Origin: an uncultured Flavobacteriales bacterium
GTDB lineage: Bacteria; Bacteroidota; Bacteroidia; Palsa-965
Reading direction: 5' to 3'
DNA: 64,000 nucleotides
NCBI GenBank assembly: GCA_903873905.1
Contig: CAIQQJ010000131.1
Location: 22,729 to 86,728 of the forward strand
Part shown: positions 186-39,671 of the stretch, one piece after another
Layout of the letters: every line of letters starts with the position of its first letter
How positions within the stretch are numbered: the first letter of the stretch is position 1
Translations under genes and position numbers: made by a program
Notes under the pieces: model-generated
What the model saw: the letters and a program-made list of their open reading frames with translations, nothing else
What the model was told of the DNA's origin: nothing
Databases searched by the model: none

Positions 186-1025
186 TCAAACAGCAACAGC
201 TTTTTTCTCTTGGAGTTTCAAATGTCTAAAACCACCCCATAAAGCAGCTCCAATTGCTCCAGAATAAATTGCATCAGGATGAGTTTTTATTACAAAAGTT
301 TTTCCTGTTTCATCAAGTTGTTCTTGGATTGCCTGCATCATTCCTTTGTTCAAAGCCATTCCACCTGTAAGAATAATTGGTGACTCTGCTTTCAATGAAC
401 TTAGAAGTTTGATAATCCTTCCAGCAATTGACAAGTGAATTCCTTTGATAATATTTGGAGTAGAAATTCCACGCGATACCATGTTGATTACATCCGTTTC
501 AGCAAGTACAGCACAAATTCCAGAAGATATTTCTGGTTCGGCAGCTTGCAAAGAAACTTCACCAACTTCCTCAATAGATAAACCAAGATATCTGGAAATA
601 TTTTCAACAAATTGTCCAGAACCAGATGCACATTGTCCTGTCATTTTATAATCCTGAACACGCGCACCTTCTGCAATTTTGATGGCACGCACATAAAGTG
701 CTCCCATATCTACAACACTTTTTGCATCTGGGAAAAAGTAATTTGCGCCTTTTGCATGCGTGGTCATTCCATAAAAATGTCCGCGTTTGCGTCTTACAAG
801 ATCGCCTTCACCAGTAGAGGCAAGATACGCTACGTCCTCATACTTCAAATTATGTTTAGCAAGCATAGCCACAATCAAATCATCGGCAAGCGTTGTCGGA
901 TTTCTTTTGCGGATTTTTTCCGTTTGCTTATCAATAATTTTTGGATTTGATGAATAGTCAACAAGGACTAACTTGATGAAATTACTTCCAACATCAATTC
1001 CCATTGTAAAAAAAGAATTTTCCAT
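186..1025 (-). CDS. BadF/BadG/BcrA/BcrD-family ASKHA ATPase (small ATP-binding/activator subunit, BcrD/HgdC-like)
   Basis: 279-aa ORF. N-terminal GIDVGS phosphate-1 motif. Paired cluster-bridging Cys motifs (QCASGSGQF and ICAVLAETD) equivalent to HgdC Cys127/Cys166. Size matches BcrD (about 280 aa). Confidence 0.8.
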   Translation of the reverse strand: MENSFFTMGIDVGSNFIKLVLVDYSSNPKIIDKQTEKIRKRNPTTLADDLIVAMLAKHNLKYEDVAYLASTGEGDLVRRKRGHFYGMTTHAKGANYFFPDAKSVVDMGALYVRAIKIAEGARVQDYKMTGQCASGSGQFVENISRYLGLSIEEVGEVSLQAAEPEISSGICAVLAETDVINMVSRGISTPNIIKGIHLSIAGRIIKLLSSLKAESPIILTGGMALNKGMMQAIQEQLDETGKTFVIKTHPDAIYSGAIGAALWGGFRHLKLQEKKAVAV

Positions 1026-1029
1026 AGTT

Positions 1030-2175
1030 TTATTTATTTGTCAGCTCAGGTTTATTTATTGATACAATTTCCTTTTTATAAATTACATTTTTTTTCGCCA
1101 GATAATTCACAACAAACTCAAAACACTTCTCCTCCTCACCAATGAATTCAGGAGGACAAATACCTTTCCTCCAAAACATTCCATCCAAAACCAAATGGGC
1201 GGCGGCAGTGCATGTATAACCAGTGGTGCGCGCCATTGAAGAGGTTTGCGTTTCATCATCAAAACTATCATACAGTGTGTAGGTGATTTTCTGTTCGTTG
1301 TCTTCTACTACAACTCGCATGATGGTAAAATCCTTTTCACCGGGTTTCATTTTCCACTTCGGAAAAAGCAATTTGCTGGTAAGTTCGAGTGGAGTAACAT
1401 TCTGTCCATTTATGACAATTGGTTCTTTACTGAAAAGTCCAGTTTCGCGAAAAATTTTCATCAATTCCACATGACCTGGAAAACGCAAAGTTTTTTCCTT
1501 CATGTTTTTCACATCAGGCATGGTGTGTGCCAATGATCGCAGTCCGTCTGAATTGAAAGACTCCAATTCTCCAGTTTCTGGGAATGAAATTTTCACACAA
1601 TCAGATAAAGCTTCTTTGGTAACTAGTTTTCCATCTTCCACATATCGTGCAGGACGAACATATTCCTCAATGACATCTGCAGGAGAAAAAACCGCTTTGT
1701 ATTCGAAAGGCCATTCACGAACAACAGGAAGTCCTCCTACGAGACATTCGTAACCTGTCAATTTCATTTGTTTGTTATGATATCCTGCAATGATATTACA
1801 CATTCCAGGTGCCACACCACAATCAACAACAACAGTTACATTATTTTTTATCGCAAGTTCATTGAGTAAAAAAGGATCTTCAGGAAAAAAAGAAATGTCG
1901 ACGACATTTTTTCCACATGAAATAATATTTTTCAAAACTTCGAATCCCATAAATCCAGGCACTGCACCAATTACCAAATCAAAGGGTGCAACAAGTTTTT
2001 CCAATTCAACTTTATCAAGAAAATTAATTGGAACAACCTTGATTGGAAATCGTGAAGACAGTTCAGAAAGTGAACTCAAATTCATATCCGCACAAGTAAC
2101 TTCAAACGCTTTGCTTAAATCAATTGCAATAGTTTTTCCAATCAAGCCCGCACCCAAGACAAGCACCTTTTTCAT
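1030..2175 (-). CDS. saccharopine dehydrogenase-family NAD(P)-dependent oxidoreductase
   Basis: 381-aa ORF. N-terminal Rossmann motif VLVLGAGLIGK. Overall saccharopine/carboxynorspermidine-dehydrogenase-like length and layout. A 4-nt gap to the downstream BcrD-like gene implies an operon. Confidence 0.6.
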   Translation of the reverse strand: MKKVLVLGAGLIGKTIAIDLSKAFEVTCADMNLSSLSELSSRFPIKVVPINFLDKVELEKLVAPFDLVIGAVPGFMGFEVLKNIISCGKNVVDISFFPEDPFLLNELAIKNNVTVVVDCGVAPGMCNIIAGYHNKQMKLTGYECLVGGLPVVREWPFEYKAVFSPADVIEEYVRPARYVEDGKLVTKEALSDCVKISFPETGELESFNSDGLRSLAHTMPDVKNMKEKTLRFPGHVELMKIFRETGLFSKEPIVINGQNVTPLELTSKLLFPKWKMKPGEKDFTIMRVVVEDNEQKITYTLYDSFDDETQTSSMARTTGYTCTAAAHLVLDGMFWRKGICPPEFIGEEEKCFEFVVNYLAKKNVIYKKEIVSINKPELTNK

Positions 2176-2358
2176 CTTTTGTCATGTTTTTTCCTGTACC
2201 AAAGTAACACTCAAAGACACTCTCTTCTTATGATCACCGTCATATTTCACATTGAAAAATTTAGAATTCCAGATTAATTTTTAATCGATAAAAAATCCAG
2301 CTTTTCATGGGAGATTTTTTGGAAAAATTCATAAAATAGGCTGATTTTTCGATTGGAA

Positions 2359-3105
2359 TTATTGCTTTTCAACCAAGGGGCCATTTATTGCCAATCTGAC
2401 TTCTTCTTCAAGTTGAGTATGGTCTTCCTTTTTCAAGCCAATTGTCATGATTGGTTTGTGAATAATCACTTCGCTGAAGCCAGGACCCGCTTTTCCTTTG
2501 AACATTCCACCAATTCCAAGACGTTTCCAATTACTCACAAACGTAATGGGAAGAATCGGGATTTGTTTTTGAATGGCAATTGCAAATGCGCCAGGCTTGA
2601 ATGGTCCAAGATTCGGTGGATCTTTTGGTCGGGTGCCTTCTGCAAATATCATGAGTGGAATTCCATTATCAATTTCCTGCGACATTCTTTTGATTGCTTT
2701 GAAAGAACCCGCTGTGCTACTTCTATCGACCATGATATTCATTCCAGATGTATAAAAAATATGGAAGAGTGGCCATTTTTCAATTTCCTTTTTTCCCACA
2801 AAAACAAAATATCTGTTGAACAATCGGTAGAGGCAAAATGCATCCATGAAAGAAGTGTGGTTCGGGCAAATGATAAATGATCCTGTTGCGGGAATATTTT
2901 CTTTTCCTTTTACTTTCATGATTATTCCAGCAAAAGCCACCAACAAAAATGCATGGAATTTCATCACGCTAAAGGCTGTCGGAAAACGTTTTGGATTTCG
3001 GAATAAATAAAAGTAGAGCGGAAACATTACCAGCATTACGATTGAAAAAAACAGCAGGTAATAAATTTTGAATATTATCCGAAATGGCGCAAGTAAATAA
3101 TCCAT
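2359..3105 (-). CDS. lysophospholipid (1-acyl-sn-glycerol-3-phosphate) acyltransferase, PlsC family
   Basis: 248-aa ORF. N-terminal TM segment. HX4D block PNHTSFMDAF and FAEGTR block are the diagnostic PlsC motifs. Confidence 0.8.
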   Translation of the reverse strand: MDYLLAPFRIIFKIYYLLFFSIVMLVMFPLYFYLFRNPKRFPTAFSVMKFHAFLLVAFAGIIMKVKGKENIPATGSFIICPNHTSFMDAFCLYRLFNRYFVFVGKKEIEKWPLFHIFYTSGMNIMVDRSSTAGSFKAIKRMSQEIDNGIPLMIFAEGTRPKDPPNLGPFKPGAFAIAIQKQIPILPITFVSNWKRLGIGGMFKGKAGPGFSEVIIHKPIMTIGLKKEDHTQLEEEVRLAINGPLVEKQ

Positions 3106-3160
3106 GACAATCAGGTTCCCTCAATTTTTGACAGCAAAAAAAATGGCAAATAAATAATTA

Positions 3161-4024
3161 TTAAAAAACACTTTTACCATTTTTCATTCCATAAACATGC
3201 TCTTTCACTTTTTGTGCCCACTGCTGGTCGGTATTTTCCTTCGTGAATTTCTCGTATGAAATTGGTGATCCAACAGTTATTTTTATTGCTTTACCTTTTT
3301 GTTTGTACGTTTCATTCACGAGGTAAAACATTTCAATGTTTGCTTTAATCCCCATTGTTTTCCTGAATCGCGCCAGGTTATAAAAAAAGCCACTGTTCTG
3401 CGCATCGATATATACTGGAATTACATCGTGTTTATATTTTATTGCTTTGGTCACAAAACTTTTCTTCCATTCAAGATCTTCGATTTTTCCATTTTGCTTT
3501 CTTGAAACCAAACCTGCTGGAAAAACAATTGTGCAACCTTCAGAAGCATACGATTGGTCTATTTGCGCAATACTCACAGCTGCATTCTTTCCATGCTTGT
3601 TCACAGGAATCATCAGGCTCGCCATGTTTTCAAGATTCATCAAAATGTCATTGACGATTGCCTTCTGATCTGTTCTCCTCTTCCCTACTTCACACATCAG
3701 TGCAATTCCATCGATACCACCAAGAGGATGATTTGCAACAATGATCAGTCCACCTTCTTTCGGAATATTTTCTAAGCCTTCGCTGATCAACACTACTCCA
3801 AAATCTAGAATAGCTGCATCAATGAATTTGTGGTCCATTACATCCTTTGTACGTAACAGAAAATCATTGAATTCATCTTGATGAACAATGCGCTTCATGT
3901 ATGACAATAGGAAACGCGGTAGCCATTTCAGAAGACGCGGATTTTTTCCTCTGATTACTTTTTCAAGATCAATTTGTATTACTTCCCTCGATTTGCTCAC
4001 TTGAAGAATATCATTTTTTTGCAA
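3161..4024 (-). CDS. acyltransferase, divergent PlsC-like lysophospholipid acyltransferase family
   Basis: 287-aa ORF. VANHPLGGIDG block resembles the HX4-5D acyltransferase motif. Later FPAG block. Sits directly upstream of, and co-oriented with, the PlsC gene, like olsB-olsA / glsB-glsA aminolipid pairs. Confidence 0.55.
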   Translation of the reverse strand: MQKNDILQVSKSREVIQIDLEKVIRGKNPRLLKWLPRFLLSYMKRIVHQDEFNDFLLRTKDVMDHKFIDAAILDFGVVLISEGLENIPKEGGLIIVANHPLGGIDGIALMCEVGKRRTDQKAIVNDILMNLENMASLMIPVNKHGKNAAVSIAQIDQSYASEGCTIVFPAGLVSRKQNGKIEDLEWKKSFVTKAIKYKHDVIPVYIDAQNSGFFYNLARFRKTMGIKANIEMFYLVNETYKQKGKAIKITVGSPISYEKFTKENTDQQWAQKVKEHVYGMKNGKSVF

Positions 4025-4098
4025 AAATATTATATCTCCAATAGTAATTGAAGTCTATTGAAAAAACTATGAGGAAATGGAGTGCCTGGATTTTAAGT

Positions 4099-5517
4099 TC
4101 AGGCTACTTCCTTATTCTTCTTCGCCGAAGGTAGATCAACTTTGATATTTCTTCTGGCAAACATTGCTCCACCTAAAGCGCCCATGAAAATGGAATCGGT
4201 ATGGATATTGATTTTTATTCCGTCTCCATAATTTTCCTTCACAAGTTGTCCGAGGTATTTGATAACTGCTGGATTACGAGCAACACCACCTGTGAAAGTA
4301 AATTCGTTGAACACACCACCTGAACGAGCGATTAATGACATAGCCCGCATGATGATCGCTTTGTGCAAACCACCTAAAATATCTTCTCTCTTTTCTCCAA
4401 GGTTTGTCAATTCGCGCAATTCGGCACCAGCAAAAACTGTACAAGTAGAACAGATTGTAACCTCTTTTTCTGCTTGCATCGCCATTGGTCCAAGTTCATT
4501 GAGTGAAATACTCATTTCATCAGCGATGTAACCAAGATATCTTCCGCAACCGGCAGCACAACGATCATTCATTTGGAAACTGGTAACAAGACCATATTTA
4601 TCCACTTGAATTGCTTTGGTGTCTTGTCCGCCAATGTCAAGAACAGTTCTTGTATCAGGGAAAACAGCGTGTGCACCGAAAGCGTGACACAGAATTTCGG
4701 AACGAATGCAATCTTCAGGGAAAGGAAGAAGAGCGCGACCATATCCTGTTCCAGTCATGTTGGTAATATTGAAATCCATCATTGCAACATCATCAATGTG
4801 TTGACGAAGTGAATCTGAAATATTTTCAACTTTTCCTTTCAATAAATTTATTTCTGCATCAAAGTTTACGCTAACATTTTCTGCTGCGGTCTCTGTAAGC
4901 GTATTGTATTTTTCTTTCAAACGATCCATTGATTTATGAATCAATTCAATGAAATCAAAATCAACAGAAATGTTTTCAGCAGGGGTGATACTTTTATCCC
5001 ACACGGTCATCAACGACTCGAATAATTCAGGCCCCAATTTCGCAACTTCTTCATTGTATTTTTCAGAAACAATATCGCGGAAGAATTGATTTTTGCTTCC
5101 AAGATTACCAAACAGATATTCATTCTTAATCCTTGGCTTCATTGATTTACGAATGGCGCGCAAAGCTTCCAAAATAGTATCCTGCATTTCAGGTTTGATA
5201 TAACTCTTGGTAGTTTTTAAAAGCTCCTCACCAAGTTTGTCAATACGAATTCTGAATTGCTCGTATTGAAAAGCATTTTCCAAATCAGAAATATATTTTC
5301 TGTATTCAGGATTAGCTTCCATTTCCTTTTCAAGATTCCTCTTTAGAATGGAAAAGCGTGCATTGTAAACGGCTTCAGCACGAGCAATATCAGCAGCGAC
5401 AGCGTAATTCGCTCTGGTATTTGTAATTCCACGGCCGATGATTTCATCATTCTCATTGATGATTACCGCCTTCGAAGTTGTTGATCCAAGGTCAACACCT
5501 AAATAATATTTATGCAT
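4099..5517 (-). CDS. BadF/BadG/BcrA/BcrD-family ASKHA ATPase (large ATP-binding subunit, BcrA/BadF-like)
   Basis: 472-aa ORF. LGVDLGSTTSK phosphate-1 motif, DIGGQDTK phosphate-2 motif. Cluster-bridging Cys motifs RCAAGCGRYLG and CSTCTVFAGAE. Long inserted helical domain as in BcrA. Confidence 0.8.
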   Translation of the reverse strand: MHKYYLGVDLGSTTSKAVIINENDEIIGRGITNTRANYAVAADIARAEAVYNARFSILKRNLEKEMEANPEYRKYISDLENAFQYEQFRIRIDKLGEELLKTTKSYIKPEMQDTILEALRAIRKSMKPRIKNEYLFGNLGSKNQFFRDIVSEKYNEEVAKLGPELFESLMTVWDKSITPAENISVDFDFIELIHKSMDRLKEKYNTLTETAAENVSVNFDAEINLLKGKVENISDSLRQHIDDVAMMDFNITNMTGTGYGRALLPFPEDCIRSEILCHAFGAHAVFPDTRTVLDIGGQDTKAIQVDKYGLVTSFQMNDRCAAGCGRYLGYIADEMSISLNELGPMAMQAEKEVTICSTCTVFAGAELRELTNLGEKREDILGGLHKAIIMRAMSLIARSGGVFNEFTFTGGVARNPAVIKYLGQLVKENYGDGIKINIHTDSIFMGALGGAMFARRNIKVDLPSAKKNKEVA

Positions 5518-5536
5518 GTTGTTTACTTTTCAAATA

Positions 5537-6841
5537 TTAAACTGTAGCACCTTCTTCTTGTGACATGATGATTTTTCTTTGTTCCAACATTTGGAAATAA
5601 GACTCCAAACGATTCTTGATATTCGCATAGGAGAAATAACGCGGATCAACAAGATCAGATTCTACGAATCCAACTGGCACACCTGAACGCTGTTCAATTT
5701 CTCGCATGATCATCAATTGACCTGCCGAGAATGAATTGCAACTCTTGATTGAATTGATCAAAAAACCATCTGCTTTATATTCTTTTACATAATCAGCCAA
5801 AAGATTTACACGTTGTGGAAGATTCAAATTCGTGTAACAGCCCATGCAATATTTTGCAAGACTCTCCAATGGTTGTTTTGGATCGTGACGGAATCCCATA
5901 TCATAAACTCCACCCACTTTTGTGTAAGATGATGCCACAATTACGGCGCCCATGTCATAAAATATTTTCCAGAATTCGCGGAAGTTGGTCCAGTTTGGAG
6001 GTCCTTCAACTACCAAACGGAATTTTTCTTCTTTGATTTCCCCTTCTGGCGTTACAGGGCCAAGACCGAGTCGCATTCTTTCCTGTACCTCTTTCCAAAG
6101 CTCTTCATAATAATCAACCGCTTCTTGTGTACCACGGAATGCGGTGAAAATTGGTCCGATATAATATACACCAGCGAAATAAGCATCGATTGGTGAAGGA
6201 ACATGTTTCGCACTTTCAAGAATTTTCACAAGAAGATCTTCAGCCTTCGCTGAATTTTCCATCATTTTGGAAAGACGAACCTGGTCATATTTTTTACCAG
6301 ATACCATTTCCATTTTCGGAATAACATCCTCGTTCATTTGCTTCACCATGTATTCTATTTGATCCGTTGTAATTTGTCCATCTTCCTGATAAGGAGTATG
6401 AAGCATTGCAACAGGAACACCTGGATACAACCGTTCAAGATTTTCAAACCATTTCAAGAATGTAAAACATCCTGTGTAACTCAACAGCAACAAATCTGGA
6501 GCTGGAAGTTTTTCACCTGTAGGTCCGACGTTGCCATTCAACATCATTCCGATATCACACTTTACATAAGTGCAAACATCTTCAGAGAATCCAATTTTTT
6601 CAGCATCCTTGATATAGGCCGCTGATTTTTTTCTCATACCTGATTGTAGTGCATTGATTTCTGGATATACGGGAAGCATATCGAATGAAAGAATCAATTC
6701 GGTAAGATTACCTGGTACAAAAGTATAAACCACTTTTTTTCCAAGTTCTTTCGCTTTACCTAAATCTTGAAATTGTTTTGCAAGCATGTCCTTCTGAAGG
6801 ACCATACTTTTTTCTTTTATTGCATCTTGCGGATTAGCCAT
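5537..6841 (-). CDS. benzoyl-CoA reductase / 2-hydroxyacyl-CoA dehydratase family subunit (BcrB/HgdA-B-like)
   Basis: 434-aa ORF with the overall profile of the HgdA/HgdB/BcrB/BcrC superfamily (conserved Cys-containing segments). A 20-nt gap to flanking genes implies an operon. Confidence 0.7.
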   Translation of the reverse strand: MANPQDAIKEKSMVLQKDMLAKQFQDLGKAKELGKKVVYTFVPGNLTELILSFDMLPVYPEINALQSGMRKKSAAYIKDAEKIGFSEDVCTYVKCDIGMMLNGNVGPTGEKLPAPDLLLLSYTGCFTFLKWFENLERLYPGVPVAMLHTPYQEDGQITTDQIEYMVKQMNEDVIPKMEMVSGKKYDQVRLSKMMENSAKAEDLLVKILESAKHVPSPIDAYFAGVYYIGPIFTAFRGTQEAVDYYEELWKEVQERMRLGLGPVTPEGEIKEEKFRLVVEGPPNWTNFREFWKIFYDMGAVIVASSYTKVGGVYDMGFRHDPKQPLESLAKYCMGCYTNLNLPQRVNLLADYVKEYKADGFLINSIKSCNSFSAGQLMIMREIEQRSGVPVGFVESDLVDPRYFSYANIKNRLESYFQMLEQRKIIMSQEEGATV

Positions 6842-6861
6842 TGTAAACTATTTTTTTTGGT

Positions 6862-8025
6862 TTAGGCCCAGAGTTTAATTGAATCAGAAAAAGTTCCGGC
6901 TTGTTCCTTGATGACTTTGAATTGTCCGGTATTTTCGTGGAATTGAAAATTGATGTGAGCAAGTCCTGCTGCATCACATTCTTTTTGCATTTCTGGACGA
7001 TCCAACAATGCTGGATCACAGAAACTAGCTGCGCAGAAAATCACTCCGTCGGCATTACACGCTTCTGCAAGTTTCACCAAACGTTTTCCTTTTGGATTGC
7101 CTACATCATAATAAGCCGATGAAAAAGTACTTTGATTAATGTAAGCCAAAGCCAATGTTTCAAGAGGATTAGCAGTTGTATCGTCAATATCGCCTTGAAT
7201 CCAACGTGAGCCAAGCATCAAGTCATCTTCAACGATATAGCAACCTGCCATTTCAATTGATTTTATCATTCCAATTGGCGGTTGTTCACAGAAAGAACCA
7301 GAAATCACAACACGGATATTATCCATCGGTTCTCCACGCTCTATACTGATTACATCAATAACTTGTTGTAGAATTTTATTGTGCTGCTCTACAGGAATTG
7401 CAAGTCCTGCACGAAGAACATAATACGTATCAACTGCAGATAATCTCCAAGGGAATTCCTGTCTGATTTTATAAATCGCTTCGATCAAACGACGGTTAAT
7501 ATTATAAAGTCCGATTGCTTTATTAATTGCATCAACCGTTACTTTCACACCATTGACTTTGAACATATCGTCAATGATTTTTTCCATTTCCTGTTTGTAA
7601 AAAGTTCCGCCAATTTTTGGATCAAAATTTTGCGGATAATCGAAATAGCGTTGGAAGTTCCCTTTTTTAGAAAGTTTGAACATGCCAGAAAGATTTCTAA
7701 CACAATCGCAAATTGCAGGGAAAAGAAAACCATCAAAATCATTCAGGTTTTTATCCAAAGCCATTTCTATGATGCCACGTGGGAGATGGCATATGTAGGA
7801 TTGATAATAGGCATCACCCTTAATGATTTGTTTTCGATCACCGGCTCCCATAATTCCAACCGGTAATGCCTTGGCGGCGTGCATAATTTCCCGTGGTACA
7901 TAGATTGGCAAATAACCAACAATCATACGATCAGGAGAATCAGCTTTCCATTTTTTTGCTACTTCAAAGTTCAGGTCAAAAGCAAGTGCTTCACATTCTT
8001 TCAGCAGCTGATCAAGCTTATCCAT
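6862..8025 (-). CDS. benzoyl-CoA reductase / 2-hydroxyacyl-CoA dehydratase family subunit (BcrC/BadD-like)
   Basis: 387-aa ORF, HgdB/BcrC-like. It is the first gene of the minus-strand operon; the length matches BcrC (about 386 aa). Confidence 0.7.
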   Translation of the reverse strand: MDKLDQLLKECEALAFDLNFEVAKKWKADSPDRMIVGYLPIYVPREIMHAAKALPVGIMGAGDRKQIIKGDAYYQSYICHLPRGIIEMALDKNLNDFDGFLFPAICDCVRNLSGMFKLSKKGNFQRYFDYPQNFDPKIGGTFYKQEMEKIIDDMFKVNGVKVTVDAINKAIGLYNINRRLIEAIYKIRQEFPWRLSAVDTYYVLRAGLAIPVEQHNKILQQVIDVISIERGEPMDNIRVVISGSFCEQPPIGMIKSIEMAGCYIVEDDLMLGSRWIQGDIDDTTANPLETLALAYINQSTFSSAYYDVGNPKGKRLVKLAEACNADGVIFCAASFCDPALLDRPEMQKECDAAGLAHINFQFHENTGQFKVIKEQAGTFSDSIKLWA

Positions 8026-12142: not shown

Positions 12143-12294
12143 AAAATACCATCCACTCCAATGTCAGCTAAGGTCGTTATATATGTTAGCGAGAGATATG
12201 ATATAAATCATGTTTGCTGCTCCTAAATATTGTGAAATTTGAGAAAAAGATACCTCTAAAATTTGAATTTTTGAAGCGGTTCGAAAAAAAATAA

Positions 12295-13539
12295 GTGAAA
12301 GAAAAAACCAAAGTAGAATTACTTGCCCCATGTGGATCATTTGAATCGCTTTCAGCAGCTGTGAAAGTCGGGGCGAATGCTGTTTATTTTGGAATTGAAC
12401 AGTTGAATATGCGCACCCGTTCATCGAACAATTTTGAGATGAAAGATCTTGCAGCGATCAGTAAAATTTGCAAAGAACATCAGGTAAAATCATATCTCAC
12501 ACTCAACACCATTCTCTACAATCACGACATCAATCTGATGAAAAGAATTGTGGATGAAGCAAAGGCAAATAATATTGATGCGATCATCGCTTCAGATCAT
12601 GCGGTTTTCAACTATGCGAAGAAAGTTGGAATTCCATTGCACATTTCCACTCAGGCAAACATTACGAATATCGATACGGTTGAATTTTATTCTACGTATG
12701 CAGATGTAATGGTCATGTCGCGTGAACTGACACTTGATCAGGTTTCGGAAATCACAGAAGAAATAAAAAAGAGAAATGTTCGCGGGCCTTCTGGAGAATT
12801 GGTTCGTGTTGAAATTTTTGCACATGGAGCTTTGTGCATGGCCGTTTCCGGAAAATGCTACATGAGTTTGCATTCCGATTTTGCTTCTGCCAATCGTGGT
12901 GCTTGTGTTCAAAATTGCAGAAGAAGTTATATCGTTACCGACAAAGAATCGGGAACTGAATTTGAAATTCAGAACGAATATATCATGTCAGCGAAAGATC
13001 TTTGTACGATCAGTTTCATTGACAAAATTGTCAATGCAGGAGTTTCTGTTTTGAAAATTGAAGGACGAGCACGTGGTGAAGAATATGTTCACACCGTTAC
13101 CAAATGTTATCACGAAGCAATTGATTCGCTTTCTGATGGAACTTATTCTCCAGCAAAAATTGAAGGTTGGACAAAAGAACTTTCCACTGTATTTAATCGC
13201 GGATTCTGGGATGGTTATTACCTCGGAAGAAAAATGGGAGAATGGAATGATGAATATGGTTCCAAGGCAACAAAAAAGAAAATCTATATTGGAAAAGGCA
13301 TAAAATATTTTGAGAAAATTGGAATTGGTGAATTCAAAATTGAAAGTCAATCCTTGGAAGTTGGCGATGAAATAATGATTTCAGGACCTACAACAGGAAT
13401 CATTCAGACAGCCATAACAGAAATGAGAATCAATGATGTGAAAAGTGAAATTGCAAAACGTGGTGAAACCATTTCCATTCCTATCAACGTTAAAATTCGT
13501 GCTTCCGATAAATTATACAAGATGAAAAGTACAGTATGA
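12295..13539 (+). CDS. peptidase U32-family protein (PrtC/RlhA/TrhP/UbiU-like; probably an Fe-S, O2-independent hydroxylase-type enzyme)
   Basis: 414-aa ORF. U32 N-terminal TIM-barrel region (ELLAPCGSFESLSAAVKVGANAVYFG) and conserved Cys (CMAVSGKCYMS...CVQNCRRSY). Confidence 0.8.
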   Translation: MKEKTKVELLAPCGSFESLSAAVKVGANAVYFGIEQLNMRTRSSNNFEMKDLAAISKICKEHQVKSYLTLNTILYNHDINLMKRIVDEAKANNIDAIIASDHAVFNYAKKVGIPLHISTQANITNIDTVEFYSTYADVMVMSRELTLDQVSEITEEIKKRNVRGPSGELVRVEIFAHGALCMAVSGKCYMSLHSDFASANRGACVQNCRRSYIVTDKESGTEFEIQNEYIMSAKDLCTISFIDKIVNAGVSVLKIEGRARGEEYVHTVTKCYHEAIDSLSDGTYSPAKIEGWTKELSTVFNRGFWDGYYLGRKMGEWNDEYGSKATKKKIYIGKGIKYFEKIGIGEFKIESQSLEVGDEIMISGPTTGIIQTAITEMRINDVKSEIAKRGETISIPINVKIRASDKLYKMKSTV

Positions 13540-13766
13540 TTCGGATTTTTCATCAGCGCAAAAAATGCATTGGTTGTAATGCATGTGTGGAAGTAAATAA
13601 ATCAAGATGGAGAATATCACGTTTGGATGGGAAATCAACTTTGATTGAAGGAATAGAAAAAAAAGGAATTTACATGGCAACTGTTTTTGATGATGAATGG
13701 GAAGCCAATGAACTCGCAGCGAAAAATTGTCCAGTAAAAATCATCCGATTGGAAAAAATAGTATGA
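13536..13766 (+). CDS. small ferredoxin (single-cluster Fe-S protein)
   Basis: 76-aa ORF. CIGCNACVE ... NCP motif (CxxCxxC...CP). Start overlaps the U32 stop (ATGA). Stop overlaps the likely start of the downstream Mo enzyme. Confidence 0.6.
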   Translation: MIRIFHQRKKCIGCNACVEVNKSRWRISRLDGKSTLIEGIEKKGIYMATVFDDEWEANELAAKNCPVKIIRLEKIV

Positions 13767-16561
13767 AACAAATCAACATTAAAATCAACGGAAAAAATTT
13801 CGACCTTCTCGTTGAGGAACACGAAATGCTTTCAAATGTCATTCGTGAAAAGGTTGGCCTTACAGGTACAAAAGTCGGTTGTGAGCAAGGAAGTTGTGGA
13901 GCTTGTACTGTTCTCGTTAACAAGGAACCTGTGCTCAGTTGCATCACTCCTGCTTTGCGTTATGATGGTGCTGAAATTACAACTATCGAAGGCGTTTCCA
14001 AAAATGGAGAACTGCATCGCTTGCAGGAAAAATTTGTGGAGAAAGGTGCGATTCAGTGTGGATTTTGTACTCCAGGAATGATCATCACTTCATTGGATTT
14101 TTTAAGCAAGAATCCGAATCCTACAAAACATGAAATAAAGGAAGCGTTATCAGGAAATGTTTGTCGTTGCACTGGATATAAAAAGATTGTGGAAGCGGTT
14201 GCTGAATACGCCGAAGAAAAGAATTCAGGCAAAATCATCAAAAGAAAAAAAGAAAAAGAAACAGGAACTGTTGGAGTTGGCCGACCATACATTGAGGCAA
14301 CAAAAAAAGTTCAGGGAATTGCTGATTATGCAGACGACTATCAATTCAAAGATGTTTTGCATGTAAAATTTGTAAAAAGTATTTATCCACATGCTCGCAT
14401 TGTAAGTATTGACACTTCTGAAGCTTTGGCAATGGAAGGCGTTCGATATATTGCCACAGGAAAAGAATTGCCAATCACTTTTGGAGTATTGCCTCTTTCA
14501 CAAGATGAAACGGCAATGGCCATTGAAAAAACAAGATATGCTGGAGAAATTGTTGCGGCTGTTGCAGCAGATTCAGAAGAAATTGCAGCACATGCATGCA
14601 AACACATCAAGGTTGTTTACGAACCGCTTAAAGCATTCCTTACCATTGACGATTCCTTGAATGACATTGGTACAGCAGAAAAAATTCACGACACAACAAA
14701 ATTCAATAACAACATTCACAAGAAAGCGGAATTACGCTTTGGTGATCAGCAACAAGGATTGAAAGAAGCTGAAGTTGCATTAAAAATGGATTTTGAAATG
14801 ATTGGCATCAATCATGGTTTTACAGAGCCGCACGCGTCCACAGCATTTTGGGATGAGAATGGTTTGACCATGATTTCTGCAACACAAGTAACACACTACC
14901 TCCATCGCGCACTTGCAAAAACAATGGAAGTTCCATTGAGCAGAGTACGCGTAATCAAACCTGTTCTCGGTGGTGGTTTCGGTGGAAAAAGCGATCCTTT
15001 CGCGCATGAAATTATTGTCGCGCACATTGCAAGAAAAACTGGAAAACCAGTGAAAGTTCGATTGACGCGGGAAGAAGTATTCTTGAACAACCATGGTCGT
15101 CACCCAACAAAAATGACTATCCAATTAGGCGCAAGTAAAGATGGATTTTTGAAAGTGCTTGATGCCGATGTTGCAATTGATGGTGGTGCATACGGAAGTT
15201 TTGGAGTGGTTACATCCTATTACAATGGCGTATTGCTTCAAGCTCCCTACAAGCTGAATAATTTCGGTTTTAAAACCTATCGTGTTTATACCAACAAACC
15301 ACAATGTGGTGCCATGCGCGGACATGGTGCAGTGAATACAAGATTTGCAGTTGAATCGATGATCGATGAAATTGCACATCAAATAAAAATTGATCCTGTC
15401 GAGATGCGAATGAAAAATTTTCTCGATCCGAATTCATTGACAGTTGGTCATTACCGCATCACTTCGAATGGAAGCAGAGAAGCAATTCAAAGAGTGGCAG
15501 AACAATCCGATTGGAAAAACAAACATGGTAAAATGCCGCAAGGTCATGGCTATGGAGTTGCTTGCGGATTTTTCATTAGTGGAAGTGCATTGCCGATCGT
15601 ATGGAATGAATTGCCGCAATCAGTAGTGCATTTGAAAGTTGATTTTGATGGAAGAGTTTTAATTGCTTCTGGCGCGAATGATATTGGACAAGGCAGCGAT
15701 ACCATGCTTGCCATTATTGTTGCAGAGGTACTTGGAATTAGCATGGACAAAACATTTGTAATCGCTGCAGATACATTGATCACACCTGTTGATTTGGGAA
15801 GCTATTCCAGTCGCGTAACATTTATGGCTGGTAATGCAGCAAAAGATGCAGCTGAAAATCTCAAAAAAGAAATTGCAAACTCCATTTCTGTAAAGAAAAA
15901 TATTCCTGTAGAAGAATTGATTTTTTCTGAGAATAGAATTTTCAGCAATGATAAATCGGTCGATCTAAGTTGGGATCAAGCCATTGAAATTTTGACAGCA
16001 AATCGTGGTGCAGTGAATGTGAGTGGAAAATATATTTCTCCAAAATTGGGTGGTGATTTCAAAGGAGCTGGAGCAGGATTAAGTCCATCTTATTCTTTCA
16101 GTTCTTGTGTCGCAGAAGTGAAAGTGGATACAGAAACAGGACATGTGAAAATCATCAATGTTTGGGGTGCTCACGATTGTGGAAAAGCACTAAATCCATT
16201 GGCAGTTGAAGGACAATTGGAAGGCTCTTGGCACATGGGAATCGGGCAAGTGATGACGGAAGAAATGTCATATTACAATGGATTATTGATCAACAATAAT
16301 TTCTTGGATTATAAAATTCCGACAAGTTTGGATACTCCTCCCATTCACACCAACATCATCGAGACGATTGATCCGGAAGGTCCTTTTGGTGCGAAAGAAA
16401 CAGGAGAAGGTGCCATTCATGCAGTATTGCCAGCCATCGCAAATGCAGTCTATGATGCAGTTGGAATTCGAATCACAAAACTTCCAATCAAATCAGAGGA
16501 TGTTTTGAGATTATTGAAAGAAAAAGAAAAAATAAATTCCACTTCAAAAGCTAGTTTATAA
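13763..16561 (+). CDS. xanthine dehydrogenase-family molybdoenzyme with fused N-terminal 2x[2Fe-2S] domain (aldehyde oxidoreductase MOP-like; probably a molybdopterin cytosine dinucleotide (MCD) enzyme)
   Basis: About 930-aa ORF. The ORF track start is 13727; the likely start is MKQINIKINGKNF at 13763. 2Fe-2S motifs CEQGSCGACTV, QCGFCTPGM, CRCTGY. Long aldehyde-oxidase/XDH a/b hammerhead and Mo-binding domains (GGGFGGK, etc.). Architecture as in D. gigas MOP. Confidence 0.85.
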   Translation: MKQINIKINGKNFDLLVEEHEMLSNVIREKVGLTGTKVGCEQGSCGACTVLVNKEPVLSCITPALRYDGAEITTIEGVSKNGELHRLQEKFVEKGAIQCGFCTPGMIITSLDFLSKNPNPTKHEIKEALSGNVCRCTGYKKIVEAVAEYAEEKNSGKIIKRKKEKETGTVGVGRPYIEATKKVQGIADYADDYQFKDVLHVKFVKSIYPHARIVSIDTSEALAMEGVRYIATGKELPITFGVLPLSQDETAMAIEKTRYAGEIVAAVAADSEEIAAHACKHIKVVYEPLKAFLTIDDSLNDIGTAEKIHDTTKFNNNIHKKAELRFGDQQQGLKEAEVALKMDFEMIGINHGFTEPHASTAFWDENGLTMISATQVTHYLHRALAKTMEVPLSRVRVIKPVLGGGFGGKSDPFAHEIIVAHIARKTGKPVKVRLTREEVFLNNHGRHPTKMTIQLGASKDGFLKVLDADVAIDGGAYGSFGVVTSYYNGVLLQAPYKLNNFGFKTYRVYTNKPQCGAMRGHGAVNTRFAVESMIDEIAHQIKIDPVEMRMKNFLDPNSLTVGHYRITSNGSREAIQRVAEQSDWKNKHGKMPQGHGYGVACGFFISGSALPIVWNELPQSVVHLKVDFDGRVLIASGANDIGQGSDTMLAIIVAEVLGISMDKTFVIAADTLITPVDLGSYSSRVTFMAGNAAKDAAENLKKEIANSISVKKNIPVEELIFSENRIFSNDKSVDLSWDQAIEILTANRGAVNVSGKYISPKLGGDFKGAGAGLSPSYSFSSCVAEVKVDTETGHVKIINVWGAHDCGKALNPLAVEGQLEGSWHMGIGQVMTEEMSYYNGLLINNNFLDYKIPTSLDTPPIHTNIIETIDPEGPFGAKETGEGAIHAVLPAIANAVYDAVGIRITKLPIKSEDVLRLLKEKEKINSTSKASL

Positions 16562-17496
16562 TGGTTTCCGAAAAAATTTATGTAAAACCAAAATCTGTTG
16601 AGCAAGCTATAAAAATAGCGAGTCAATACCTTGGTTCATTTCGATACCTCGCAGGTGGAACCGATGTGATCGTGAATAAATATCAGGGAAATGAAGAAGC
16701 GAATTGTTTGATCGATATCACGGAGATCGAAGAATTGAAAAAAGTTTCCATCGATGGTGATTATTTGAAAATTGGATCATTGATAAAATTAGACGATCTG
16801 AAAAAACACGAATCCATTGTCAAATACATTCCCACATTAATTCAAGCGGCTCACGAAGTGGCTTCACCCATATTACGCAAAACGGCTACTATCGGTGGAA
16901 ATATTTTGTGTGAAAACAGATGTTCCTTTTACAATCAAAGTGAATGGTGGAGAGAAGCTGTAGGATATTGTTTGAAATGTGATGGGGAAATCTGCATTGC
17001 AACTGGCGGTAAGAAAAATTGTTTTTCAAAATTTGTTTCCGACACAGCACCTGTGCTCATCGCTTTGAATGCAAGGCTCGAAATTATCGATACCAATGGG
17101 GAATCTACCATTGCGCTTGAAGATATTTATTCAGGCGACGGGATGAATCCAAGAAAGCTAAGTGCAACAGCGTTGATCCGAAATATTCAGATTCCCATTG
17201 GTGAAAAACAGATTTGCATTTTCAAAAAACTCCGTCCACGTGAAGCGGTTGATTTTACATCGCTCACGACAGCTGTTTCACAAAGTGAAATTGGAAGAGT
17301 AAGAATTGTTCTCGGCGGAGTGGATCCTAAACCAATTGTTGTAGAGGGAAAAACAACAGATGATAAAAATGCATTGATCACTTCTGCTGTAAAAAAAGCT
17401 AGAATTGTCGACAATGATGTTTATTCACGTCAATACAGAAAAGAAATGATTTCGGTTTACCTACAAAGAAGTTTCGATGAATTGAAATGGGAATAG
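16561..17496 (+). CDS. FAD-binding subunit of a xanthine dehydrogenase-family enzyme (CoxM/HcrB-like) with a Cys-rich insertion
   Basis: 311-aa ORF. YLAGGTDV and TIGGN FAD-domain motifs. Start overlaps the Mo-subunit stop (ATGG/TAATGG). Six-Cys insert at residues 117-154. Confidence 0.8.
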   Translation: MVSEKIYVKPKSVEQAIKIASQYLGSFRYLAGGTDVIVNKYQGNEEANCLIDITEIEELKKVSIDGDYLKIGSLIKLDDLKKHESIVKYIPTLIQAAHEVASPILRKTATIGGNILCENRCSFYNQSEWWREAVGYCLKCDGEICIATGGKKNCFSKFVSDTAPVLIALNARLEIIDTNGESTIALEDIYSGDGMNPRKLSATALIRNIQIPIGEKQICIFKKLRPREAVDFTSLTTAVSQSEIGRVRIVLGGVDPKPIVVEGKTTDDKNALITSAVKKARIVDNDVYSRQYRKEMISVYLQRSFDELKWE

Positions 17497-17600: not shown

Positions 17601-18134
17601 ATGAATGACTCAATCAAACTTTTGACCGATGAACATGTTGTAATTTCTACAGCTTGTGAAATTTCAGACCGAATTGCCAAGCTAATTGGGAAAAAGGACA
17701 GTGAATATGAAGATGTTGCTCGCCAATTACTTTCCTTTTTCAGGGAATATGGAGATGCCTACCACCATTTTAAGGAGGAGAAAATATTGTTCCCCGAAAT
17801 GAACAAGAAAAACGAAATGATTGCTGACGGAATCATCAAGGAAATGTTGGAAAATCATGAGGATTTTCGGGAGTTGCTAAGAGGAGTTGAAGATTTCCTG
17901 AATAAAAAAGATTATTTAAGAGCACAACAGCAATTCCACATTTACAAGGAAGTCCTCTTGGATCACATTGCAGTTGAAAATGATGAAGTGTTTCACGTTG
18001 CAGATGCACTCTTTTCTCCAACTGAAAATGAAAATATAAATTTCAGATTTGCCGATTGTGACAATGAACTCGGATTGGAAAAGAAAAAAAATCTTGCTTT
18101 ATTAATTCAAAATTTGGACAATTCGGTGAAATAG
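17601..18134 (+). CDS. hemerythrin-like (HHE cation-binding) domain protein
   Basis: 177-aa ORF. H/E residues spaced as hemerythrin motifs (LTDEHVVI, HHFKEEKILFPEM, HIAVENDEVF). Confidence 0.65.
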   Translation: MNDSIKLLTDEHVVISTACEISDRIAKLIGKKDSEYEDVARQLLSFFREYGDAYHHFKEEKILFPEMNKKNEMIADGIIKEMLENHEDFRELLRGVEDFLNKKDYLRAQQQFHIYKEVLLDHIAVENDEVFHVADALFSPTENENINFRFADCDNELGLEKKKNLALLIQNLDNSVK

Positions 18135-18157: not shown

Positions 18158-18589
18158 ATGGAATCGGCAATTTCTTCGTTTATTAATTCACAAACCAATC
18201 TCACGTATTGCACGTGCATTGGAGATGTTCCACATTGTGCAAATTGTTTTTTTGCTTGGAATGAAGAATTGAATGCACTTATTTTTAAGTCTGACAACAC
18301 CACAAGACACATTCAAGAAGCACTGAAAAACAACCATGTCGCAGGAACCATTCTTCCTGATAAATTGGAAAAAGGAAAAATAAAGGGAATTCAATTTTCG
18401 GGAACCTTCCTAATTCCTACAGCTGAAAACCTAAACATCGCTAAAGAAAGTTATTACAATAAATACCCCTTTGCAAGAGTAATCCCAGGAGAAATCTGGG
18501 CAATTCTCCTCGAAGAAATAAAAATGACAGACAACACACTTGGGTTTGGGAAAAAACTTTTGTGGGAACGAAAAAAAGAAAAATTATGA
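18158..18589 (+). CDS. hypothetical protein, possibly of the pyridoxamine 5'-phosphate oxidase-like FMN-binding family
   Basis: 143-aa ORF. Weak resemblance to the PNPOx split-barrel fold. Stop overlaps the start of the downstream lyase (ATGA). Confidence 0.35.
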   Translation: MESAISSFINSQTNLTYCTCIGDVPHCANCFFAWNEELNALIFKSDNTTRHIQEALKNNHVAGTILPDKLEKGKIKGIQFSGTFLIPTAENLNIAKESYYNKYPFARVIPGEIWAILLEEIKMTDNTLGFGKKLLWERKKEKL

Positions 18590-19968
18590 AAGACTTCAAA
18601 ACAATCATCGAACCATTCAGAATTAAAATGGTTGAACCTTTCCGTTTAACGACAGAAAAAGAAAGAACAAATTATATTAAGGATGCGCACTTCAATCCAT
18701 TCCTGCTTCATTCCGAAACGGTAATGATTGACTTCCTAACGGACAGTGGAACCTCAGCAATGAGCTCTGATCAATGGGCTGGAATTATGTTGGGCGATGA
18801 ATCTTACGCCGGCTCAAAAAGTTGGTTGAAAATGGAAAAAGTAATTCGCAATCTCACCGGATTGCAATACGTTTTTCCAACACACCAAGGAAGAGCGGCC
18901 GAAAGTATTTTATATACTTACCTCGGTGGAAAAGGAAAAGTATTTATCAGCAATACACATTTTGACACCACACGTGCGAACATTGAATTTTCAGGAGCAA
19001 CAGCAATTGATATTCCATCGCCTGATGCAAAAAATCCAGAAGATTATTTTCCTTTCAAAGGGAATATGGATGTGGAGAAACTGGAACAGTTGCTAAAGAA
19101 ATATCCTGCGGAAAAAATCGGCGGTGTAATTCTTACTGTTACCAATAATAGTGGCGGAGGACAACCGGTAAGCATGAAAAATGCGCGTGACGTAAGTAGA
19201 ATTTGCAAAAAACACAAAGTGAATTTCTTTCTTGATTGTTGCAGGATTGCTGAGAATGCCTACTTCATTCAACAGCGTGAAAAGGGATATGAAAAAGTAT
19301 CCTACAAAAAAATTGCACAAGAAATGTTTGCCTTGACAGATGGCGCAGTCATGAGTGCAAAAAAAGATGCGTTGGTAAATATGGGAGGATTCCTTGCATT
19401 GAAAAACAAAGAACTCGCTGAAGCTTGCAAAAATCTTTTGATCATCACAGAAGGTTTCACAACTTACGGTGGACTTTCTGGAAGAGACATGGAAGCAATT
19501 GCCATTGGCCTTGAAGAAGTTTTTGATGCAGATTATTTGGAATACAGAATTAGCAGCACCACTTTTCTCGGAGAGCATTTAAGAAAAATTGGAGTTCCTC
19601 TCATTTGGCCAATTGGTGGTCACGCCGTTTATATTGATGCCAAAGAATTTTACAAACATATTCCTGTCCACGAATATCCAGGACAAGCACTTGCCGTTGA
19701 ACTCTACATCAAGGGAGGAATTCGCACAGTGGAAATTGGTTCGGTTATGTTCGGGAAATATGACAAAAAAGGCAAGCTCATTCCAGCGCCGAAAGAATTA
19801 GTTAGGTTGGCTATTCCAAGAAGAGCTTATACACAAAGTCATATTGAATATGTCATTGAGGTTTTTGAAAAACTAATTGCAAATAAGGAAAATGTAAAAG
19901 GATTTAAAATAACAGAAGAACCCAAATTCCTACGACATTTCACCAGCAAATTTGCGCGTGTGAAATAA
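18586..19968 (+). CDS. beta-eliminating lyase, tyrosine phenol-lyase / tryptophanase family (PLP-dependent)
   Basis: About 461 aa from MKDFKTIIEPFRIKMVEPF (the ORF track starts 8 codons earlier). End-to-end similarity to TnaA/TPL. Several blocks (DSGTSAMSSDQWAG, GGLSGRDMEAIAIGL, GGHAVYIDA) look closer to tyrosine phenol-lyase than to E. coli tryptophanase. Confidence 0.85.
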   Translation: MKDFKTIIEPFRIKMVEPFRLTTEKERTNYIKDAHFNPFLLHSETVMIDFLTDSGTSAMSSDQWAGIMLGDESYAGSKSWLKMEKVIRNLTGLQYVFPTHQGRAAESILYTYLGGKGKVFISNTHFDTTRANIEFSGATAIDIPSPDAKNPEDYFPFKGNMDVEKLEQLLKKYPAEKIGGVILTVTNNSGGGQPVSMKNARDVSRICKKHKVNFFLDCCRIAENAYFIQQREKGYEKVSYKKIAQEMFALTDGAVMSAKKDALVNMGGFLALKNKELAEACKNLLIITEGFTTYGGLSGRDMEAIAIGLEEVFDADYLEYRISSTTFLGEHLRKIGVPLIWPIGGHAVYIDAKEFYKHIPVHEYPGQALAVELYIKGGIRTVEIGSVMFGKYDKKGKLIPAPKELVRLAIPRRAYTQSHIEYVIEVFEKLIANKENVKGFKITEEPKFLRHFTSKFARVK

Positions 19969-23229: not shown

Positions 23230-24204
23230 ATGGAAGATCAAAACAAAAACAATGAAGACAACAAAACTCCTGAATCGAATGAGTCAGGCAGACGCGACTT
23301 CCTGAAATTTGGAGTGCTTGCGGCTGGGCTAACTGTAGCAGGTGTTGGTCTTCAGAAAGTTTTTTCTGGCGAAAAGAATTCCGACGAAAAAGCTTCTGGT
23401 GAGAAAGTGAAAGTCCTCACCACAGATGGAAAACTCATTGAAGTATATGCTGCGGATGTCAAAAAAGCCGATGCATGTTGTGTTCCTTCAGCGGAAGCGC
23501 GTCAAGGAATACCAGGGAAGAAATTTGTAATGGTGATCGATTTATCACGTTGCAAAGACGCTTTGAAATGTCAAAAATCTTGTGAAAAACATCACCAACT
23601 TCCTGAACAGGATAAATGGTTGAAGGTTTTCAAAATGCAAGAATCAGAAGAAACAGCTCCTTACTGGATGCCAAAACCATGTTTCCATTGTGACCACCCA
23701 CCTTGTGTTAAAGTTTGTCCTGTTGATGCAACTTTTAAAAGAACAGATGGAATAGTTTTAGTTGACAATGAACGTTGCATCGGTTGCAGATTCTGCATGG
23801 CAGCTTGTCCATATTCTGCCCGTGTATTTAACTGGTCAGAACCTGTAACTCCAGCTAGACATGAAAATGACACCTATTCTCCAGAAACAAGCACCCCAAG
23901 AAAAAAAGGTACTGTTGAGAAATGTGACTTCTGTCCAGATGTAATTAGACAAGGTAAACTTCCACATTGCGTTACTGCTTGTCCAAATGGTGTTTATTAT
24001 TTCGGTGATCAAAATGAGGACACCGTTACCAATGGAGACACAACAGTTCGCTTAAGCCAATTGCTAAGAGACAAAGCTGGTTACAGATATTTGGAATCTC
24101 TTGGAACCGAACCTAGCGTTTATTATCTCCCTGCTGCCAATCGAATATTCCCATTCAAAGACAGGGAAATTAAAGATGAAAAGAAGGAAGAATCCAAAAG
24201 CTAA
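23230..24204 (+). CDS. Tat-exported 4x[4Fe-4S] ferredoxin-type subunit (NrfC/PsrB/NosG-like)
   Basis: 324-aa ORF. RRDFLKFG twin-arginine signal. Four Cys clusters (CFHCDHPPCVKVCP, CIGCRFCMAACPY, CDFC...CVTACP, plus one atypical first cluster). Confidence 0.8.
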   Translation: MEDQNKNNEDNKTPESNESGRRDFLKFGVLAAGLTVAGVGLQKVFSGEKNSDEKASGEKVKVLTTDGKLIEVYAADVKKADACCVPSAEARQGIPGKKFVMVIDLSRCKDALKCQKSCEKHHQLPEQDKWLKVFKMQESEETAPYWMPKPCFHCDHPPCVKVCPVDATFKRTDGIVLVDNERCIGCRFCMAACPYSARVFNWSEPVTPARHENDTYSPETSTPRKKGTVEKCDFCPDVIRQGKLPHCVTACPNGVYYFGDQNEDTVTNGDTTVRLSQLLRDKAGYRYLESLGTEPSVYYLPAANRIFPFKDREIKDEKKEESKS

Positions 24205-24259
24205 GGGATTAAGCTGAAGAAAAATTAATTGTCAATTAATAAATGAATAGCTCACAAAT

Positions 24260-26580: not shown

Positions 26581-26617
26581 TAAACAATTTAACCATCAAA
26601 CTAAAAAAAACAAAATC

Positions 26618-34618: not shown

Positions 34619-34624
34619 GCATAA

Positions 34625-37041: not shown

Positions 37042-37049
37042 TCTTAATA

Positions 37050-37529: not shown

Positions 37530-37695
37530 TTAAATTAAATCAATTTAGATTGGCGCTACTCTTGAAAGGAAAATGGGTTAGGTTGAAACAAAACGATTCA
37601 CCAATAACCAAATGCAAAAACGCATGATCATCAATGAGGATCATGCGTTTTTATTGAACTATTTTTGAAATACAAAAAAATCGGATTTTAATCGA

Positions 37696-38415: not shown

Positions 38416-38419
38416 CCTG

Positions 38420-38438: not shown

Positions 38439-38477
38439 AGATCAAATTTATCGATTCCCGTAAACATAAAAACTGAC

Positions 38478-39655: not shown

Positions 39656-39671
39656 TTCGAATCACTATTGC

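Follow-up and report, generated by a model that had tools for sequence, protein, structure and literature searches.

The 64,000-nucleotide stretch of DNA analyzed here (hereafter the window) comes from an uncultured Flavobacteriales bacterium (assembly GCA_903873905.1, contig CAIQQJ010000131.1, positions 22,729 to 86,728) and encodes a putative molybdenum (Mo) enzyme related to 4-hydroxybenzoyl-coenzyme A (CoA) reductase (4-HBCR), whose flavin adenine dinucleotide (FAD) subunit carries a cysteine-rich loop. The FAD subunit (16561..17496, + strand) is an HcrB-like protein of 311 amino acids with the FAD motifs AGGTD and TIGGN. It belongs to the FAD_binding_5 family (PF00941, E 2e-36), the sole Pfam family reported for the protein, and the match covers residues 7-212 with a profile of only 170 positions. 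Directly upstream lies a 932-residue protein (13763..16561, + strand; Pfam Fer2, Fer2_2, Ald_Xan_dh_C and MoCoBD_1/2), in which an HcrC-like part with two [2Fe-2S] sites is fused to an HcrA-like molybdopterin subunit (hereafter HcrCA). The core of the loop (16909..17023, + strand) holds C117, C121, C137, C140, C145 and C154, and is delimited by translation, by alignment with HcrB and by conservation. Measured against canonical FAD subunits of the CoxM/XdhB type, the insertion as a whole comprises the 42 residues 116-157 (16906..17031, + strand), as delineated by profile-versus-PDB alignments. After T110-I-G-G-N114 the chain reads ILC117ENRC121; 15 residues separate C121 from C137, which opens the segment C137LKC140DGEIC145, and the eight residues IATGGKKN lie between C145 and C154. 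The first-pass annotation of this DNA had placed six cysteines within 38 residues at 16909-17023 of the FAD subunit, and both the coordinates and the count proved exact, because the C117 codon begins at nucleotide 16909 and the C154 codon ends at nucleotide 17022.

Among all PDB chains, the top phmmer match of the FAD subunit is HcrB of Thauera aromatica 4-HBCR (1rm6_B, E 3e-40). PaoB of Escherichia coli (5g5g_B) and the medium subunit of a Methylobacillus aldehyde oxidase (5y6q_B) follow, both at about 1e-17; canonical FAD subunits rank lower and match residues 7-116 only. The alignment to HcrB is gapless across the cysteine-rich stretch (query CENRCSFYNQSEWWREAVGYCLKCDGEICIATGGKKNC; HcrB QDTRCTFYNQSEWWRSGNGYCLKYKGDKCHVIVKSDRC) and places C121, C137, C145 and C154 opposite HcrB C122, C138, C146 and C155, respectively, which we take to be the cluster ligands in 1RM6. 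Both proteins share the four-cysteine spacing C-x15-C-x7-C-x8-C. C117 and C140 fall opposite Q118 and Y141 of HcrB, so the agreement in cysteine spacing that had been looked for is exact for four positions and fails for these two, which have no cysteine counterpart. Identity to HcrB is 45% in the loop, 27% in the rest of the protein and 29% overall, and a profile of 45 homologues matches HcrB with an E-value of 5e-50. Against nicotinate dehydrogenase (3hrd_C) and CO dehydrogenase (1ffv_C) the profile match ends at 115 and restarts at 158-164, where these chains advance by 5-11 residues. Since the canonical chains skip the profile positions in between, residues 116-157 are a true insertion at the position of the HcrB loop. 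The earlier statement that canonical CoxM/XdhB FAD subunits have no such insert therefore holds, as does the comparison with the site of the HcrB loop. HcrB, presented there as the best-known exception, does possess the loop but is not alone, for PaoB and 5y6q_B also have insertions at this site. An AlphaFold2 model of the FAD subunit, built from the 45-sequence alignment, has a predicted local distance difference test score (pLDDT) of 79 and a predicted template modeling score of 0.83; a Foldseek search of the PDB with this model again returns 1rm6_B first (E 2e-22, TM 0.75), and the match of the overall fold is usable.

Conservation is the decisive evidence that the cysteine-rich feature is real. 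A collection of 5.8 billion proteins contains 3,474 relatives of the FAD subunit at E<=1e-10. The best 120 of these are 62-100% identical to it, and the named ones among them are proteins of Bacteroidetes/Bacteroidia metagenome-assembled genomes (MAGs) or entries called “4-hydroxybenzoyl-CoA reductase subunit beta” by JGI. All six cysteines are invariant in 45/45 aligned homologues (61-85% identity), and 25 of the 76 invariant columns of this Bacteroidota alignment fall within residues 116-156. The exact six-cysteine spacing is present in 117 of the 120 closest proteins and at 80/80 species-representative genome loci, these being the best 80 of the 241 genomes with a relative of the FAD subunit among 185,579 species genomes scanned. 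For a wider view, 1.84 billion 50%-identity representatives were searched, giving 317 proteins at E<=1e-30, and 136 full-length 50%-identity representatives were aligned in MAFFT with the query, HcrB and PaoB (n=139). In this alignment C121, C137 and C154 are conserved in 139/139 sequences and C145 in 138/139, PaoB being the exception. By comparison, the position of C117 is a cysteine in only 9/139 and that of C140 in 14/139, the latter figure summed from a pattern table. A cysteine occurs at query position 116 in 68/139 sequences, HcrB (C117) included, where the query has leucine. As judged from these alignments, the four HcrB-type cysteines define a large family, and the six-cysteine version is the signature of a Bacteroidota subfamily together with the representatives nearest to it (42-50% identity). 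The loop cysteines are thus kept among orthologues, a point on which the first-pass annotation had made its reading depend.

Cysteine density was considered as a further line of evidence and dropped. Given the 1.4% cysteine content of long reading frames in the window, about 0.27 stretches of 38 residues with at least six cysteines are expected by chance per 64 kb, which makes the stretch only mildly unusual. Equal density is found elsewhere in the window at a 4Fe-4S dicluster protein near 23680 and in one non-coding shadow frame. The latter is a cysteine-rich open reading frame (ORF) of 251 amino acids (51898-52653, - strand), antisense to the gene for a SurA-like peptidyl-prolyl isomerase (50323-52482) and most likely non-coding, and its existence shows that density alone is a poor signal. 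Homology and conservation, not density, are the reasons to regard the feature as real.

The partner subunit points in the same direction as the loop. The best PDB match of HcrCA is HcrA (1rm6_A, E 2e-177, 595 bits), with 41% identity over 754 columns; Desulfovibrio gigas aldehyde oxidoreductase (344 bits) and PaoC (191 bits) come next. Its cofactor motifs are complete, comprising both [2Fe-2S] cysteine motifs and the GGGFGG and FGAKE motifs of the Mo site. The iron-sulfur part begins directly at the Fer2 domain, and PaoA matches only from residue 62. The mechanical ORF start of HcrCA is a TTG at 13727, but the ATG at 13763 is probably the true start, as it fits the beginning of the Fer2 domain. 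Three separate alpha, beta and gamma subunits are not found here, gamma and alpha being encoded in one ORF. The fusion recurs in 74 of the 80 loci, where HcrCA accompanies HcrB.

HcrCA and HcrB form the end of a tightly packed string of genes. It starts with a U32-family protein (12295..13539, + strand), which is followed by a single-cluster ferredoxin of 76 amino acids (13536..13766, + strand; Fer4_15, CxxCxxC...CP). Stop/start overlaps (ATGA, TAATG) at 13536-13539, 13763-13766 and 16558-16563 join U32 to ferredoxin, ferredoxin to HcrCA and HcrCA to HcrB; the ferredoxin start overlaps the U32 stop and its own stop overlaps the HcrCA start, an arrangement indicative of translational coupling. 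The U32 protein is related to the prephenate-dependent, O2-independent hydroxylases TrhP and UbiU. Together with a 615-residue protein encoded on the - strand, the U32 protein and the ferredoxin (10295-13766) travel as a module in 7-8 of the 80 loci, usually beside the Hcr-like genes. The 615-residue protein has no match in Pfam, NCBIfam or the PDB, and the U32 protein none in the PDB. Further upstream on the + strand, Pfam matches identify a MocA-like cytidylyltransferase (8188-8793), an XdhC chaperone (8798-9571) and a FabG-like short-chain dehydrogenase/reductase (SDR; 9561-10298).

Divergent from these genes, the - strand carries bcrC (6862-8025), bcrB (5537-6841), bcrA (4099-5517) and bcrD (186-1025). 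In NCBIfam, BcrC (449, cut-off 421), BcrB (686, cut-off 487) and BcrD (317, cut-off 313) exceed their equivalog cut-offs, and BcrA (447, cut-off 578) lies below its own. On these matches the bcrCBAD genes (186..8025, - strand) are assigned to a complete Thauera-type class I ATP-dependent benzoyl-CoA reductase (BCR). Between bcrA and bcrD lie genes for two lipid-type acyltransferases (PF01553, PF19576) and for a saccharopine dehydrogenase (1030-4024, - strand), an insertion that recurs, whole or in part, in a few other loci (L003, L059, L063 and L080). The acyltransferases within the operon raised the question whether the BCR-like genes serve in biosynthesis, of flexirubin, lipids or something else; this idea was set aside because BcrB, BcrC and BcrD pass their equivalog cut-offs and because genes for Had (6-hydroxycyclohex-1-ene-1-carbonyl-CoA dehydrogenase) and Oah were found.

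Downstream of the FAD subunit lies a gene for a hemerythrin-domain protein (17601..18134, + strand; Pfam), which shows weak similarity to the Fe-S repair proteins RIC and YtfE and may serve the Fe-S enzymes by sensing oxygen or repairing clusters. The second gene downstream, adjacent to an MFS transporter, encodes an enzyme of the tryptophanase/tyrosine-phenol-lyase family (18562-19968, + strand; PRK13238, 673 bits). Only a few loci have this enzyme in the vicinity of the Hcr-like genes; it could be a source of phenol or indole. A gene set for respiration and nitrosative stress occupies 23230-27058 and 33668-42292. It includes a Fer4 dicluster protein, an NrfD-like membrane protein, cytochromes c, ScdA/hemerythrin/DUF2249 proteins, two haem-copper-oxidase-like proteins (one of them weak) and three Crp/Fnr-type regulators, and suggests that the host is facultative or microaerobic, possibly handling nitric oxide, and not strictly anaerobic.

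How far does this arrangement extend beyond the window? The best 80 genomes are all uncultured Bacteroidota MAGs, recovered from lakes, groundwater, peat and sludge. Neighbors were located by tblastn with the proteins of the window, and the recurrent order is bcrD-bcrA-bcrB-bcrC on one side, pointing away from MocA-XdhC-SDR-(U32-ferredoxin)-HcrCA-HcrB-hemerythrin on the other. Among the 60 loci with enough flanking sequence, the SDR is the most conserved neighbor of HcrCA-HcrB (42/60, directly upstream), followed by MocA (37/60), XdhC (31/60) and the hemerythrin-domain protein (28/60). Past the left edge of the window, the same contig was read in the Bacteroidota MAG assembly GCA_026391895.1 (L081:10881-20840). 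It encodes a CoA ligase, an ADP-forming acyl-CoA synthetase, a further dehydratase-like pair, a thiolase and a gene matching Had (324 bits, partial gene). At a locus with a 65%-identical FAD subunit, Oah (376 bits, partial product) and a Dch-like hydratase lie just upstream of MocA-XdhC-SDR-HcrCA-HcrB, and at a further locus pyruvate:ferredoxin oxidoreductase (PFOR; 1729 bits) is divergent from HcrCA-HcrB and is followed by beta-oxidation-type CoA-ester enzymes. With bcr and Had in the window and its contig, and Oah/Dch and PFOR at homologous loci, the HcrB-like family sits consistently among CoA-ester, benzoyl-CoA-pathway and ferredoxin-reducing genes.

What, then, would the loop do? On the sequence comparisons above it is the homologue of the HcrB loop, and it most likely binds a [4Fe-4S] cluster that takes low-potential electrons from ferredoxin for the reductive dehydroxylation of a phenolic aryl-CoA. 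The holoenzyme would consist of the HcrC-HcrA fusion and the FAD subunit, with a molybdopterin-cytosine-dinucleotide (MCD) cofactor that the adjacent MocA would make and XdhC would insert. C121, C137, C145 and C154 would hold one [4Fe-4S] cubane, through which low-potential electrons from reduced ferredoxin would enter the enzyme; the donor could be the translationally coupled 76-residue ferredoxin or a ferredoxin reduced by PFOR. In Thauera, ferredoxin is reportedly the donor of 4-HBCR, a result ascribed to Breese and Fuchs in 1998. From the cubane, electrons are predicted to pass to FAD, on to the two [2Fe-2S] clusters and finally to the Mo centre, where benzoyl-CoA would arise by reductive dehydroxylation of 4-hydroxybenzoyl-CoA or a close analogue. 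The neighboring ATP-dependent BCR could then dearomatize this product. The paper on the HcrCAB structure names an “inverted electron flow” in its title (Unciuleac et al., 2004). The first-pass annotation had proposed low-potential reductive chemistry on aryl-CoA-type substrates, and this proposal gains support from the homology to HcrB, the HcrA-like partner and the BCR context; cluster binding, donor, substrate and the direction of electron flow we infer from the same comparisons.

Several observations weigh against this assignment. Although they are the best-scoring families for their respective parts, the 4-HBCR alpha (TIGR03194, 805 bits against a cut-off of 995) and beta (TIGR03195, 220 against 405) models of NCBIfam stay below their cut-offs, and so does the gamma model (TIGR03193, 177 against 258), which is outscored on the N-terminal part by glyceraldehyde dehydrogenase gamma (193.2 bits) and XdhC (179 bits). 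With all three Hcr parts below their equivalog cut-offs and a FAD subunit only 29% identical to HcrB, the substrate may differ from 4-hydroxybenzoyl-CoA. The SDR (9561-10298) may likewise hint at another substrate or at an additional step in the pathway, as this conserved upstream gene has, to our knowledge, no counterpart in the Thauera hcr operon. The first-pass annotation had also drawn on a small ferredoxin gene and a BCR-type cluster nearby, and both are real. The ferredoxin, however, is found near the Hcr-like genes in only 8 of the 80 loci, always together with the U32 gene, and is best seen as part of an optional module. It is also a one-cluster protein, whereas that of Thauera is presumably of the 2[4Fe-4S] type. 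No small 2[4Fe-4S] ferredoxin of the Thauera type is present in the window, in which the sole CxxCxxCxxxCP motif lies in a 324-residue dicluster protein (23230-24204). BCR genes fall inside the fetched flank in only 19 of the 49 loci with at least 9 kb upstream. Finally, residues 119-156 of the AlphaFold2 model have a pLDDT below 50, as might be expected for a cofactor-dependent loop, and the geometry of the cysteines is beyond its reach.

The loop by itself also cannot fix the reductive direction, because PaoB and 5y6q_B have insertions at the same site. Xanthine-oxidase-family enzymes are mostly oxidative; the PaoB insertion binds a [4Fe-4S] cluster and PaoABC works oxidatively. An enzyme of this kind, a hydroxylase or PaoABC-like aldehyde oxidoreductase in which the loop cluster serves as the exit to ferredoxin or another acceptor, is therefore the first alternative to weigh. 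It draws on the rank of PaoB and 5y6q_B as the second and third best solved relatives, and on the cytochromes c and haem-copper-oxidase-like proteins of the window, which indicate that the host is no strict fermenter. It is nevertheless unlikely. The Mo subunit is far nearer to HcrA than to PaoC (595 versus 191 bits), the cysteine spacing is that of HcrB and not that of PaoB, which lacks an equivalent of C145, and the iron-sulfur part has no N-terminal extension such as that of PaoA. The surroundings, with BCR, Had, Oah and PFOR, are those of a benzoyl-CoA pathway.

A second alternative concerns the two cysteines that HcrB does not share. Here the six-cysteine loop would do more than hold a cubane: C117 and C140, as a cluster-adjacent redox dithiol/disulfide or as alternative ligands, would tune the entry of electrons or gate it, for instance to protect against oxygen. 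Both residues are invariant in the subfamily (45/45 homologues and 80/80 loci) and rare outside it (9/139 and 14/139); C117 lies four residues from C121 and C140 three from C137, which would bring them close to the cluster, and the hemerythrin-domain protein is conserved downstream. Set against this, the cysteine at position 116 in 68/139 sequences, HcrB among them, indicates that a fifth cysteine near the first ligand is common and may be structural. C117 and C140 do not strictly co-occur, as the six-position patterns VCCCCC, QCCCCC and CCCACC among the representatives demonstrate, and the low pLDDT of the loop puts their geometry out of reach. We regard such a role as quite improbable. That the loop lacks a redox role, being a structural zinc site, a disulfide knot or a cysteine-rich segment due to chance, is very improbable indeed, for despite a cysteine density that is not strongly improbable and a loop fold that is not confidently modeled, the stretch is homologous to the HcrB cluster loop position by position, the four HcrB positions are kept almost universally, and a Pfam scan of the protein finds no zinc-ribbon or other family over the region, only PF00941.

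An HcrB-type [4Fe-4S] loop in a ferredoxin-dependent dehydroxylase thus stays the preferred reading, and as such it is known 4-HBCR biology. In public pipelines these proteins already bear the name “4-hydroxybenzoyl-CoA reductase subunit beta,” so the finding mainly validates annotation, and its added value is modest and lies in the context. New at the level of the subfamily are the gamma-alpha fusion, the two extra invariant cysteines near the predicted cluster, and the conserved SDR and hemerythrin genes. New, too, is that many uncultured Bacteroidota possess the enzyme alongside Had, Oah and a BCR of the Thauera type. A literature search on 4-HBCR, class I BCR or anaerobic benzoyl-CoA ring degradation in Bacteroidetes/Bacteroidota found no report. 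It is a long shot, to be offered as speculation, that the Bacteroidota enzymes form a distinct subfamily marked by the fusion, the six invariant cysteines and the SDR and hemerythrin genes, that in it C117 and C140 constitute a redox or oxygen switch or alter the ligation, that the substrate is a phenolic CoA ester other than 4-hydroxybenzoyl-CoA, and that the product feeds an ATP-dependent benzoyl-CoA pathway, so far undescribed, in freshwater Bacteroidota that are uncultured and widespread. Hundreds of uncultured Bacteroidota genomes from freshwater, groundwater and peat combine a Thauera-type ATP-dependent BCR with Had, Oah/Dch and an Hcr-like dehydroxylase. Provided that these genes are active, their hosts could take part in turning over phenolic and humic carbon in the anoxic water of lakes. 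The cysteine pair specific to the subfamily gives a small but testable means of asking how the entry cluster is tuned.

Comparison with characterized systems places the enzyme among its relatives. Reductive dehydroxylation of a phenol by a three-cofactor, xanthine-oxidase-family enzyme is exemplified by the urolithin C dehydroxylase UcdCFO of Enterocloster (PMC11760930). According to that report, UcdCFO differs in having a FAD subunit without a 4Fe-4S loop, in an activity supported by NADH and in a substrate that is no CoA ester (PMC11760930). Canonical FAD subunits of the CoxM/CutM, XdhB and NdhF types (1FFV_C, 1N5W_C, 3HRD_C) share the FAD_binding_5 fold (Foldseek TM about 0.7) and the AGGTD and GGN motifs, but lack residues 116-157 and have no Fe-S cluster in this subunit. 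PaoABC, the periplasmic aldehyde oxidoreductase of E. coli (5G5G), and the aldehyde oxidase of Methylobacillus (5Y6Q) have the FAD-subunit insertion at the same site, with cysteines at the positions of C121, C137 and C154. Their insertion differs in length (49 residues for the PaoB loop) and in sequence, the equivalent of C145 is missing in PaoB, PaoA has an N-terminal export extension absent here, and the Mo subunit is distant. By sequence, the FAD subunit is classed as neither PaoB-type nor canonical CoxM/XdhB.

The closest system is HcrCAB of T. aromatica (PDB 1RM6/1SB3), itself a member of the xanthine-oxidase family. The enzyme of the window differs from it in the fused gamma and alpha parts (932 residues), the 29% overall identity of the FAD subunit, the extra invariant C117 and C140 along with leucine at the position of HcrB C117, and scores under the NCBIfam equivalog cut-offs. 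It differs also in the flanking SDR and hemerythrin genes, the one-cluster character of the adjacent ferredoxin and the uncultured Bacteroidota host. Shared by both are the fold, the insertion after the GGN motif with its four-cysteine spacing, a Mo subunit that is 41% identical, both [2Fe-2S] motifs, an MCD-type cofactor as implied by the adjacent MocA, and the linkage to a class I BCR and the benzoyl-CoA pathway.

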